DNA of 64,000 bases from Hormiphora californensis. Its lineage: Eukaryota; Animalia; Ctenophora. Shown here piece after piece: positions 3,801 to 63,029 of the stretch. A program made the translations under genes and the position numbers. Below the pieces are notes generated by a model, which saw only the letters and a program-made list of their open reading frames with translations, was not told the DNA's origin and ran no database searches. Location: assembly GCA_020137815.1 (NCBI GenBank), contig CM035360.1, forward strand, positions 434,001 through 498,000. The letters are read 5' to 3'. Positions within the stretch are counted from its first letter, which is position 1; every line of letters begins with the position of its first letter.

Positions 3801-6800
3801 GTCGCAGGAAATACTATCACTGCTGAAAGACCAGTCAACCCCTCCCCATCAATCACTAAGCCCCAACCATCAATCCGAACCTGCTACCCAATCACCACTC
3901 CAACAGCCACCACCGCTAAATAAAGCTACCCAGAAGCCAACCCCGCTATCTACAGCCCATGGGTCCCATGCTACAGCTACCCTGCAGCCACCTCCGCTTC
4001 ATACAGCCCCTGCTACTGCCACCCAGCTTCCCTCTGCGCTGAAAGTTAATGAGAAGCTAACTGTGCCACAGGTTTGTAATGACCATGTGTAATTATTGGG
4101 CATTACTAATTATAGGCGACCTTTCTATAGTAACCTCATTTTTCATCCCGGCCCCCTGTCTCTCTCCACGACAGGCCCCATTCTCTCACTCCCCGACCTC
4201 TCTCTCCAAGGAAAGGCCCCATTCTCTCACTCCCCCATCTCTCTCTAAAGGGAAAGCCCCCTCTTGGAATACCATTTGATGCCATGTGGTGCTCCGGAGA
4301 CAGCCCTCTTGATTTCCATGTGCAGCCGGTGGCGTCCTCAGACACTATTGAGAAGTTAATAGAGGAGGTGTCTCGTTTGTACAGTGTTCAACCTTTTGAT
4401 CCTAATCACCGACCAAAAGGTATAGCATTATATTGGAGTTTAATTAGTTGGTAATTAATTAAGTTAATTAGTTGATAATACTAGTTGTAGTAGGAATTAT
4501 TGTGTGAATTAAATTAGGGTATGTAAATTAGGGTGAACATATACTTTAGTAGTTATTCATTATCCGTTATCCCCAGAGGGTGACATGGTTGCTGCGTTAT
4601 GGGAGGGAACGGACAGAGAAACCTGGTATAGAGGCGAGGTGATGGTTGCTGACCGAGACTCACTGCTCATCAGGTATATAATCCACACATTTTAACCGCT
4701 CAGTCTGGGCTATCAATCATCATTATCGCAGAATTTATAATTTCTCCTTTCCTCTAGAAATATGTGTTATCCCCCCCCCCCTTTTATTTTCCTTCCTCTT
4801 CCTTCCTCTAGATTTTATAAACTCTTCCTTTAGATATGTGGACTACGGTATGAAGGGCCGAGTTAGCATCCGGGATGCCCGGAAATTAATCAGCCACAAC
4901 CACCAACCCCACCAAGTAATTAACACGGCAATTCATAATTGATAATTGTTTGATAATAGATATTTGTTTAAAAAACTGTTTCATATAGCTCTTTTACAGG
5001 CAATCAAATGCCGTTTGATGGATACTTTGGCACCTAATGAGCACCGGGAGCGGGAAATGGCATTCTTCAAGACTCAGATGGGCAGAGGCCCAGTCACAGT
5101 TACACCCCACACCTACTGCGACGAAGAATATTCGGTGAGTTTGGTGTAACCCATAGTAACCCATAGTAATCCACGCCATACCCATTTTGATTCTGCGCTC
5201 AGATGGGGTCGCGGCGCCAGACCACCGCCCATGGCAACCGCTCTAATCAAACCAAATTGGTGTAACCAACTATAATACAGCGGCTTCTGAGTCGAGTGTC
5301 GTGACCATCTTTTAGTACCTGTTACCTCTTTACCAATTCTATGACCATATTATATTGTGGAAAACTCACTCAATATCTCAGGTATCTGTAAGGCTCTCCA
5401 CGGGCGAGGATTTGGGTGATTTGTTGCAGCGGACAGATCAGTATTCTCACGAGCCCCCTGAGATAGAGGAGAGGAAGGTTGAAATTGGCAGCTCTCCAAT
5501 AGTGGAAATATCCCACTTCGTATCAGCTGAGGAGGTGAGGTGTTTTCGTTGCACTTGGCTATTTCTCTGGTCTCGCTGGTTTAATTCGTTAATTCTCATT
5601 TCTTCAAATAGGGAGCGCACGAGAACTGCACTACTACTACTAAACCTTTGCTCCTCTAGTTCTACGTAGTTTCACGAGTGGATACCTTCAAGAGAAGTGA
5701 AATGTGTGCTGCCCTGTTGAGCATAAGGAACAATCCCCCTTCACTAGGTTAGAAGTGCTTTTCAAATGAACCCTCTCTCTATCCAGAACTTGCCTTGTTC
5801 GACCCTCCTTGAAAAAACAAGGCAGAACAAGGGGGGGGTGGAGGGGATCCAAGGGGGAAGGGGCCTGAGATTTTGGCCAAAATAATGACACCGCTGACTT
5901 ATTGACATAAAAAACCTGTTGAATATCAAACGAATTTCGATCCACAATCTCTCTCACACCTCTCCCATTCCCCAGAGCTAATCGAGGAAGGTTATGTCGT
6001 GGTTGCACCTCGCAAGGGTAAACTCCAGAGAGCTCGTGTGACTGATTCAACCTCTGCTACCACACTGACGGTTCAATTCGTTGATTTTGGTGATTCGGCC
6101 ACCTTACCACGAAATGATGTTAGGATCCTCCCTGAGATGTTTGCAAGCGAACCTGCTTTTGTAAGTGCTATACTTTGATTCTTTGCTTCATTCTTAATAA
6201 TAGGCTTTGATCGCGCTGATTCTGTCTTCCGAGTGCTATTGCAGATAATAGTACCCCTTTCCCTCACCAGTAACCTAACTCTTCCCCTTCCCCTCTCCCA
6301 CACCAATAACCTAACTCTCTCCCACTCTCTCCAGGCGGTACGATGCCATATTGATGTTATCCCCTCCACCACGCCAGCCCAACTGAGACAGTTCATCCAA
6401 TCAGAATACCCGGACCTGGCCATGTGTACATTTGGTAGGAACGTCTCAGGGTTTGGGTATGAGGTTCACATCAGGAGCACTGAAGGAGGATTAACATTGA
6501 CAGCTAATCTACAGGCACATGGTTTAGCGGAAGGAAGCAGTCCACAACTATCATTGTACGTGGGCTTTGTACGTGGTTACTGGGTTTGTACGTGGTTACT
6601 AGCTTTGTACGTGGTTACTGGCTTTGTACGTGGTTACTGGCTTTGTACGTGGTTACTGGCTTTGTACGTGGTAACTGGCTTTGTACGTGGTTACTGGCTT
6701 TGTACGTGGTTACTGGGTTTGTACGTGGTTACTGGGATTGTACGTGGTTACTGGCTTTGTACGTGGTTACTGGGTTTGTACGTGGTTACTGGCTTTGTAC

Positions 6801-61500: not shown

Positions 61501-63029
61501 TCTTGTAGAAGATGCTTTAACCCTGGTCAGATCCCATATATTCAACTAGCAATGATTGTTCTAACTTCAAAAGATAGTCATACAGAACCATTACATTTAC
61601 AGGTGACTGACTATTTGGAGGTGGTGAATCGTCCAATGGATCTGGAGTTGATTAGGGAGATGATTGATAACATGGAGTACGACACCGTCAAGTGAGTGGA
61701 TCATGTCACGTGACTTGTTAATTTTTACACGGCTGTGCCAACCTTGAAGGGCTGGTTTCACCGTCCGCGGCATCATAATGATTGGAGTGGGGGGCCACCT
61801 GAGGACCTCCAAACTGCGAGACCAGTTTGGAGGTCCTCCAGTGGCCCCCACTCCAATCATTAAATTTTACACGTGAGACCAGACATTTAGAACCGATAAT
61901 TATTGAATCCATTGTTCCAAGTGGGGCAACAATTAATAAATTCCAGGGCCTTTGTCACTGATGTTGAGACGATTGCAGAGAATGCAATTGAATACAACCC
62001 TCCAGATGATCACACGGGCAGACAGATCAGACATAGAGCTGCGGAACTAAAGGATTACCTTCACTCTCTTCTAGGTGAGTTCCCAGCTCAGTGACAATAC
62101 ATCCCCTCCCTGATTCTAGTATTATCAGACCTATAGCTGAGCAGTCGGCCTCTTACAACTACCCTTTTCGACACCCCCTCTCACATCACAACTCCCCTGT
62201 CCCCTCTGATACACCCCCTCTCTCACATCACAACTCCCCTCTGATACACCACCTCTCTCAGACGCAGAGCTGGATGATGATTTTGCCAAGTTGTGTGAAG
62301 ACATGAAGGAGGCAAGGGAGGCTCGAGGGAGGAGTGAGGCAGGGGACGATGATCAGCAGGATACTAGGAGCAGATCTAGTAGTGCTAGGACTACCAGCAG
62401 AGGGAGGTCTTCTGTTGCCAGCAATAACGAGGTACGGGTAATACTGGGGGGGGGGGGGTAGTTCCTGAGTTCTGGTTTAATTACCACTAATTAACCCTTA
62501 TAACAGCACCCTAACACCCTATTAATGATATTTCAGAGTCTCCCAGCTGCTACCCTTGAGAATGGTGTGTCTGGTGAGGGGGATCAGGATCCGGCTGAGG
62601 ATGTCCTCAATCAGATAGTGAAATGTGTTAGTGGAGCAGACCAGGACACCATCCTCCGCCTTCACACCCGCCTCTCACAGGTATAGACAGTTATACAGTG
62701 TATCACCCCCTGATGTTTGGGAATTGCATCAAGACGACCCTGTCAGGCCAATGCTCTGACAACAGTTCTCGCTCGCTCCTATTTGAAAGAAATGAGAATA
62801 GGGTCAGGCTTGTCTCATATAAGACCGTACTCTTCGCACCGCGTGTGCGGCGTGCGCCGTGTACACTGTCAGTGCCAGACAAGGTCAGGCCAATGCTCTG
62901 TCAAAGACGACCATACTCATCAACAACATGCCCCCCTTTCAGGAGATATATCAGAGACGAGGAAAGACAGAGCGGGGAACCCTTCTACAGGATATAATCC
63001 TCCCTATTGTACGAGAGTTTAGTAAATAA
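49519..63029 (+). CDS. ATAD2: ATAD2/Yta7 AAA+ ATPase with bromodomain (from Walker B to stop; Walker A exons not found)
   Basis: PSIIFFDEIDGLAPVRSTRQEQIHSSIVSTLLALMDGLDSRGEVVVIGATNR..RRPGRFDREF, then GYCGADLKAL..RRRYPQ and AAA2 APSILYLP. Bromodomain TLRELRLFLR..KPVNLEE|VTDYLEVVNRPMDL..NAIEYNP..IRHRA (61271-62074); last exon 62943-63029. Confidence 0.92.
50980..57033 (-). CDS. Carbohydrate sulfotransferase (Sulfotransfer_2, CHST8-14/HNK-1ST-like), 3 exons (57033-56378, 55977-55851, 51639-50980), nested antisense in an ATAD2 intron
   Basis: Type II TM anchor and stem, 5'-PSB VPKIASTNLKR, 3'-PB RNPWRRLYSAYKDK, and NDHWAP..PCHIKYDLVG. Confidence 0.88.
52451..55702. mobile_element. 3.25-kb foldback-type element (EnSpm/CMC-like ends) filled with an inverted ~60-bp minisatellite
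   Basis: ~130-bp TIR CCCTAGTCAGAATATAATACG...CGTATTATATTCTGACTAGGG with a putative 2-bp TSD TT. The unit TTCTAAAACAGGTCCCTGTCCCACTACAGCTCTGCCACGAATTGCTACTGT flips orientation at ~53425. Confidence 0.85.
53785..54076. mobile_element. Palindromic MITE nested in the minisatellite
   Basis: AGGGGAAACTCTAACTGAATGG...CCATTCAGTTAGAGTTTCCCCT interrupts one repeat unit; TSD is TA or TWA. Confidence 0.8.
59613..61137. mobile_element. Non-autonomous DNA transposon (Mutator/foldback-like) with an internal 32-bp array
   Basis: TIR GGGGGGGTTCCAACCTATTTT with an 8-bp TSD GGCTTGGC (59605-59612, 61138-61145). TACAAAAAA subterminal repeats and a GAATCGCAATTTCTTACCGAGAAAATTTT array at ~60125-60790. Confidence 0.85.
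61778..61861. mobile_element. 84-bp hairpin MITE
   Basis: ATGATTGGAGTGGGGGCCAC...GTGGCCCCCACTCCAATCAT. Confidence 0.6.

Follow-up and report, generated by a model that had tools for sequence, protein, structure and literature searches.

Splice-junction echoes in the window

Within a 64,000-nucleotide stretch of the genome of the ctenophore Hormiphora californensis (contig CM035360.1, positions 434,001 to 498,000; the window, in whose coordinates all positions are given), about one in eight exon borders (~13% of junctions) was found to be echoed in the neighbouring intron. These echoes were confirmed as real: in each case the repeat unit holds the exon-intron boundary, and the extra copies stand beside the authentic splice site in the intron. 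We consider it probable that they result from frequent local duplication of 10-60 bp segments throughout the genome, combined with selection sparing those copies that land in introns.

The survey was based on nine multi-exon gene models assembled manually on the basis of GT/AG sites and a continuous reading frame, which provided 121 junctions, including six first acceptors without a modelled upstream donor. For each boundary, the best ungapped match within 400 nt was sought (+1/-2 scoring, at least 4 nt on each side of the junction), and every junction was compared with 25 other introns of the same kind as a chance control. Intron-side echoes scoring at least 9, 10, 11 and 13 were obtained at 19, 17, 14 and 10 junctions, respectively, against 0.8, 0.28, 0.12 and 0 expected by chance, and the same search yielded no junction-spanning copy on the exon side (0/121). 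The 17 junctions at a score of at least 10 correspond to 16 independent events, one intron being counted at both ends. Two weaker candidates, the 19570 acceptor (with its copy in the previous exon) and the 58170 donor, scored 9, at which 0.8 matches are expected by chance, and were excluded from the 16.

Head-to-tail arrays with units of 10-115 bp were recognised by Tandem Repeats Finder (TRF) in 8 of the 16 events (at 6563, 14363, 19166, 50011, 55950, 57724, 57939 and 59124); in the other eight, the two copies stand apart, with inserted or diverged sequence between them, or have decayed. Exon sequence made up 0.21 to 0.87 of the match across 17 events; the break points are therefore not tied to the junction itself. 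The initial annotation of this DNA, made from the letters alone, had reported such duplications in at least 15 places, and this number stands: all 13 loci that it named are in the sequence, and each covers a junction of the models at an ungapped score of 10 or higher; three further events scoring 10-11 were added (the 26365 donor, the 51639 acceptor and intron 48637-48517, at both its ends).

Junctions and the local duplication background

The introns of the window are short (50 introns of at most 900 nt, with a mean of 288 nt), and some genes are nested inside introns. A local repeat scoring at least 13 was present in 27 of these 50 introns, and 46% of short-intron positions had a repeat scoring at least 11 within 20 nt. 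Per position, junctions exceeded short-intron interiors 1.49-, 1.23- and 1.15-fold at scores of 10, 13 and 16 (P 0.07, 0.29 and 0.40), and 1.29-, 1.06- and 0.97-fold after masking of dispersed repeats (overall P 0.07-0.59), in a measure that over-weights multi-copy arrays in the background. Duplication density in intron interiors was thus similar to that at junctions. The repeat fraction at score 13 was 6.7% at 5-30 nt from the junction, 8.9% at 30-60 nt, 10.7% at 60-100 nt, 10.4% at 100-200 nt and 6.6% beyond 200 nt, so that this profile along the short introns has no peak at the junction.

Two causes had been offered in the initial annotation. Survival bias for duplications masked by splicing fits the data, with 17/17 echoes on the intron side and a duplication background in short introns that is sufficient to account for the majority of them, whereas a mutational focus on junctions was not demonstrated, the per-position values being 1.0-1.5 fold, not significant and without a peak. 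The comparison with the local background that had been recommended there was made within the window and gave a divided answer, negative per position and positive, at 1.7-2.7 fold, when each event was counted once.

Evidence from read-derived contigs

Contigs derived from reads provided evidence over positions 14100-27400. In run X1 (sample S1), error-free contigs start at 14432 and 23310, each exactly 29 nt before the end of an exact duplication; these starts are the branch points predicted for a 31-mer graph, and two of the window duplications are therefore supported. For these two duplications, that match speaks against an assembly artefact, with the reservation that S1 is possibly the assembled sample, in which case X1 checks the assembly rather than independent biology.

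In run X5 (sample S2), the alignment of one contig begins at 14415, where the second copy starts, and passes through the single copy 14415-14461; the same unbroken contig has 161 further letters upstream, which are not among the alignments listed. A single-copy allele would look like this. By this indirect sign at one locus, sample S2, which may come from a divergent population, appears to carry a haplotype without the 14363 echo, and such an allele would suggest ongoing turnover of echoes. The contig of run X6 across 18898-19697 covers the site of the 44-bp duplication at 19166 with 79 gap letters (43 inserted and 36 deleted, by arithmetic) and is compatible with either presence or absence of the duplication in S2. 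Most copies in the window differ from their originals by substitutions.

Origin of the echoes

According to the reading favoured here, slippage, unequal exchange or break repair at the DNA level would make the first copy, and some copies would then expand by ordinary minisatellite turnover. Selection would remove duplications that damage the mRNA, and copies within introns would survive, being spliced away; the spliceosome would keep the site nearest to the exon (the first donor or the last acceptor), leaving the mRNA unchanged. For acceptors, where the last site is the authentic one, such a choice would require definition from the exon side rather than scanning for the first AG. Survival bias by itself predicts that junctions do not exceed the intronic duplication rate. 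As the exon half of the original is under selection, however, a junction copy would decay more slowly than an intron-only pair and could be recognised for up to about double the time, which would account for a residual excess of at most about two fold.

The copies hold exon and intron sequence contiguously; therefore, the template was DNA or unspliced RNA. Duplication templated by spliced cDNA or reverse-spliced RNA was considered and set aside, the copies carrying both sides, in a search that required both sides and did not systematically seek copies ending at the junction. Direct repeats of 14-27 bp flank four insertions in the window, a pattern described for filler DNA at repaired breaks in the excerpted text of PMC3296678. 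Three stretches (8082-8144, 27268-27389 and 59203-59284) contain insertions of 35-68 bp with exact flanking repeats of 14, 27 and 20 bp, which are longer than usual target-site duplications. In-frame tandem duplications also occur in coding sequence, at 43604-43814 (minus strand, 84-bp unit), 30211-30416 (minus strand, 21-bp unit) and 3471-3845 (units of 63-81 bp), and represent products of this duplication process that have survived in exons; the presumed start codon of a transporter-like gene lies within the 84-bp repeat.

Several results weigh against this reading. Junctions exceeded all non-coding DNA 1.9-2.4 fold (P 0.001-0.06). When each duplication cluster was counted once, after removal of microsatellite-like clusters, 10 junction events were found against ~4 expected at score 13 (P 0.008-0.012) and 8 against ~4 at score 16 (P 0.04-0.06); likewise, 9-10 of the 27-29 short-intron duplications spanned a junction, compared with 3.7-5.4 expected under different corrections for intron length (P 0.0015-0.06), and the per-event enrichment amounted to 1.7-2.7 fold overall. 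Among 19 intron-only duplications, nine end within 15 nt of a junction (4.0 expected, P 0.006) and 11 within 20 nt (5.3 expected, P 0.003), both cut-offs being post hoc, and the slower decay of copies pinned by their exon half does not explain this clustering. The nearest decoy retains its GT or AG in 19/19 junction rows, a result partly built into the search, and in 6/19 it lies within 0.5 bit of the true site or above it, as judged by a matrix built from the window's own sites; the silence of the decoys is therefore an assumption of the reading. The same matrix scored the nearest decoy more than 0.5 bit below the true site in 13/19 rows and above it in two. In favour of the reading, the modelled frame is in most cases kept by the exon-proximal site only, the nearest copy being in frame in 6/19.

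Alternatively, duplications could arise preferentially at or near intron ends, for instance at R-loops or where transcription pauses at splice sites, with break repair through templated slippage, and survival bias would then act on top. The 1.7-2.7-fold excess per event, the nine intron-only duplications close to junctions, and the higher local-repeat content of short introns relative to non-coding DNA overall (6.7% vs 3.8% at score 13) favour such a process, as do four long CT tracts, apparently expanded pyrimidine tracts, that end 2-5 nt from acceptors (1707-1871, 18716-18799, 49787-49855 and 58693-58995). At the same time, the per-position excess over short introns is absent and no junction peak exists, the break points are scattered around the junction, the significance of the excess depends on the null chosen, and the data come from a single 64-kb window picked since the pattern was noticed there. 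With an enrichment that ranges in full from 1.0 to 2.7 fold, the evidence for a junction-focused process is weak, and such a process is not needed to account for the echoes; we regard it as unlikely, though worth keeping in mind. Somewhat more doubtful still is the proposal that intron ends are hot spots of local duplication feeding intron evolution in real time, in which ~13% of junctions would carry functional-looking decoys, some of them segregating between individuals, and at least one intron, 48637-48517, would have been born from a transposon-like insertion with a 15-bp flanking duplication giving both splice sites.

Maintenance of the decoys by selection, as alternative sites, as a source of unproductive splicing and nonsense-mediated decay, as back-up sites or as raw material for new introns, is improbable in our opinion. 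Their intact GT/AG and near-normal matrix scores, the six nearest copies in frame, the use of an echo as the acceptor of intron 48637-48517, and human boundary repeats that can yield alternative transcripts (excerpts of PMC2812944 and PMC1557585) are consistent with it, but six of 19 in frame is the chance level, one echo appears to be polymorphic, the copies decay by substitution and insertion, and the comparable repeats of amphioxus, called mirages, leave splicing normal according to excerpts of PMC3087553. There is hardly any room left for the view that the echoes represent assembly stutter from noisy long reads. Single-base indel errors do occur in coding exons of the window (e.g., in the ATAD2 exon 57573-57732), and the support from reads is confined to 14100-27400; however, the X1 contigs begin exactly at the predicted 31-mer branches, most copies carry substitutions relative to the original, and stutter would not spare the exon side in 17/17 cases. 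Local duplication followed by selective survival in introns thus remains the explanation that we favour.

Individual echo loci

On the plus strand, the donor echo of exon 13 in a Tudor-domain gene with 18 exons has grown into a 19-bp minisatellite of ~27 units (6547-7067; TRF; score 11; 19 copies scoring at least 9). The donor assigned to it in the initial annotation, TTGTAC|GTGG, had to be moved by 4 nt, since the 18-exon, 1196-aa frame sets the real donor at 6555/6556 (CATT|GTACGT). An acceptor echo at 7644-7775 (decoy 7677/7678, true site 7770/7771; score 13) begins right after the repeated element at 7544-7643 described below. The 47-bp exact duplication at 14363-14461 (plus strand; score 47) covers the presumed first acceptor, 14420/14421, and the ATG of a SPATIAL-domain gene, with the decoy 52 nt upstream; this site, 20 nt before the ATG and without a modelled upstream donor, is an assumed acceptor. 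In the donor echo at 18329-18558 (plus strand; true site 18351/18352; score 18), 23 exon nt and 4 intron nt are copied 204 nt downstream, with multicopy sequence in between, whereas the acceptor 19233/19234 is covered by a 44-bp tandem duplication (19166-19255, plus strand; TRF; score 28), whose decoy 19189/19190 would shift the frame.

The plus-strand donor echo labelled EBAG9 (23178-23339; true site 23183/23184, decoy 23285/23286; score 10) is present as had been claimed, yet its match extends over 10 nt and is the weakest of the named cases; the decoy ends a separate 34-bp intronic duplication lying after a fragment of the same repeated element. Further along the plus strand, a diverged acceptor echo is located at 26050-26190 (decoy 26055/26056, true site 26174/26175; score 11), and a 10-nt donor echo, which the initial annotation had not listed, at 26362-26390, 17 nt downstream of 26365/26366. 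Just before the acceptor at 24147 lies a repeat (24034-24137) with an 11-bp unit that contains CTAAC. Three acceptor echoes are on the minus strand: one labelled SLC38 (43297-43355; true site 43308, decoy 43350; score 14), a newly recognised one at the last exon of a sulfotransferase gene (51636-51749; true site 51639, decoy 51691), and the acceptor 55977 with three upstream decoys at 56091, 56221 and 56324 (55950-56344; score 29), each repeating 28 coding nt, with only 56091 in frame.

ATAD2 (49519-63020, plus strand) carries several echoes, four of them detected by TRF. Its donor 50025/50026 is followed by four decoys at 50081, 50312, 50371 and 50424 (50011-50433; ~56-bp unit; score 48), and another small repeated element has been inserted into this array at ~50124-50297. 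The donor 57732/57733 has two decoys at 57778 and 57819 (57724-57851; 43-44-bp unit; score 38), the acceptor 58002/58003 is covered by a 44-bp tandem duplication with three substitutions between the copies (57939-58028; decoy 57958; score 30), and the donor 59131/59132 is echoed as a 10-bp array (59124-59367; score 31; nine copies scoring at least 9) holding an insertion with a 20-bp flanking direct repeat. The plus-strand duplication at 62171-62262 abuts the acceptor 62261/62262, ending 1 nt before it; it duplicates the pyrimidine tract, contains no exon sequence and is not junction-spanning.

A candidate intron gain and a repeated element

The minus-strand intron 48637-48517 (121 nt; region 48515-48650) in a gene for a small P-loop protein (GxxGxGKS) consists mostly of an element resembling a miniature inverted-repeat transposable element (MITE) and is bounded by a 15-bp direct repeat (14/15 identical) whose two copies, one at either end of the intron, terminate in AG|GT, so that the donor echo is the working acceptor in our model. 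From its sequence, this intron is a candidate for recent gain and fits published gain models. No intron-less allele or orthologue was found, the sole homologue found (P0133) stopping short of the junction and reads not being searched. This case makes up 1 of the 16 events.

The MITE-like element (~105 bp, with imperfect terminal inverted repeats) occurs in nine copies in the window (7544-7643, 23186-23251, 27291-27361, 40641-40735, 41740-41838, 43444-43490, 44624-44729, 47664-47778 and 48542-48634), and its summed contig depth is thousands of times that of single-copy sequence. Seven of the eight copies in modelled introns share their orientation relative to the host transcript. A link between its ends and the duplications, suggestive by eye, was rejected, with 5 of 9 against the 46% background (P 0.40). 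Large inverted repeats, some of them around 32-bp or 62-bp tandem arrays, lie at ~10040-14060, 45040-47130, 52450-55700, 2190-2920 and 59600-61140 and are either foldback-type elements or assembly artefacts.

Gene models and their setting

The Tudor-domain gene has 18 exons (822-9234) in a single open frame of 1196 aa, and the SPATIAL-domain (TBATA-like) gene has eight exons encoding 322 aa; the placement of the ATAD2 exons relies in part on tblastn, with homologues from insects and birds as queries. Pfam supported three of nine exons tested (Tudor as TUDOR, SPATIAL and sulfotransferase) and returned nothing for the other six, the labels EBAG9 and SLC38 being those of the initial annotation only. 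Three to four sites are uncertain, in minus-strand genes near 41350, 42700 and 47300. An RNA-like contig of a relative (run X7, ~85% alike) links 18267-18337 with 19230-19265 through 126 letters, compared with 129 modelled, and also supports the modelled connection with the exon whose end lies at 16706. The reading frame ruled out a candidate exon at 8007-8075. The single-exon reductase at 21713-22747 has a 95% identical protein in EukProt, with an identifier that seems to follow the style of Pleurobrachia gene models; this would fit a pleurobrachiid ctenophore.

The Hormiphora genome has been described as containing nested genes, 13% tandem repeats and abundant non-coding indels (excerpts of PMC8527503). 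In the window, single-base frameshifts, mostly at short homopolymers, interrupt otherwise intact exons (57573-57732, with two frameshifts in ATAD2; 26175-26365; 31300-28312; 40958-40830) and look like long-read assembly errors. For ATAD2, tblastn found no exons in the window that encode the N-terminal half of its first AAA domain (Walker A), and these are possibly missing from or misplaced in the assembly; the likely 5' part of the gene is at 25214-40382, and several genes are nested in its large introns. A 242-codon open frame of unknown family (44342-43617, minus strand) runs into the start of the transporter-like gene.

Comparison with known systems

Taken together, the echoes represent a real and dense example of the known mirage pattern in what is likely a new phylum for it. 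They provide a first background-corrected estimate for mirages, from one window, of ~13% of junctions, little above short introns generally, and the compact, highly polymorphic genome makes it possible to test whether mirages require a special mechanism, a question of long standing. Identical upstream acceptors (19189 vs 19233; the four at 55977-56324) are natural tests of last-acceptor choice by a non-bilaterian spliceosome, and decoys of this kind can be a source of error for gene predictors and for spliced alignment of short reads. No report of mirages in ctenophores and no genome-wide enrichment test was found in the open-access literature, subscription papers being largely outside this scope. 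The presence of introner elements in a ctenophore was not confirmed, the main text of the preprint 10.1101/2022.06.06.494994 containing neither "Pleurobrachia" nor "ctenophore".

The statements that follow on other systems refer to excerpts of the papers cited. Two models of intron gain have been put forward, namely tandem duplication of AG|GT (the Rogers model; ATP2A1, PMC3265369) and the repair of breaks in which filler DNA comes to lie between direct repeats (PMC3296678). Intron 48637-48517 resembles them in that its 15-bp direct repeat ending in AG|GT supplies both splice sites, and differs from a gain of the Rogers type in that a MITE-like insertion, rather than exon sequence, fills its interior.

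Human minisatellites whose first unit covers a donor are known from F7 intron 7 (37 bp), CBS intron 13, 6-16, LMNB2 and PDGF (PMC1557585). In F7, the authentic donor is followed by identical pseudo-sites, and only the most upstream is used, which is the rule needed for the donor echoes here. These human cases are isolated loci restricted to the donor side, whereas half of the ctenophore echoes are acceptors, at which the last copy, the one nearest to the exon, has to prevail. Variable internal tandem repeats at the exon-intron boundaries of human segmental duplications (PMC2812944) likewise have units of ~30 bp and lengthen introns, but they belong to recent paralogues and often give alternative transcripts, unlike the echoes described here, which lie in ordinary, apparently unrelated genes.

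The closest counterparts are the mirage minisatellites of amphioxus, reported in Adh3, the globins BflGb6 and BflGb9, troponin C and PGBD5 (PMC3087553, PMC3902484), where their copy number differs from one haplotype to another and splicing is reportedly undisturbed; their origin was called unclear, and they were proposed as a source of new introns. As in the ctenophore, they consist of tandem copies of an exon-intron boundary, from the donor or the acceptor side, located in the intron and often with an intact AG or GT; the units of the Adh3 mirages are 10-72 bp. Normal splicing at the amphioxus mirages was established by reverse transcription PCR, whereas the echoes here are known from genomic sequence. 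In contrast to the long arrays of amphioxus, the ctenophore echoes mostly comprise two to five copies, several of them split by inserted elements, and, unlike in the amphioxus work, their density was measured against the background of local duplication.

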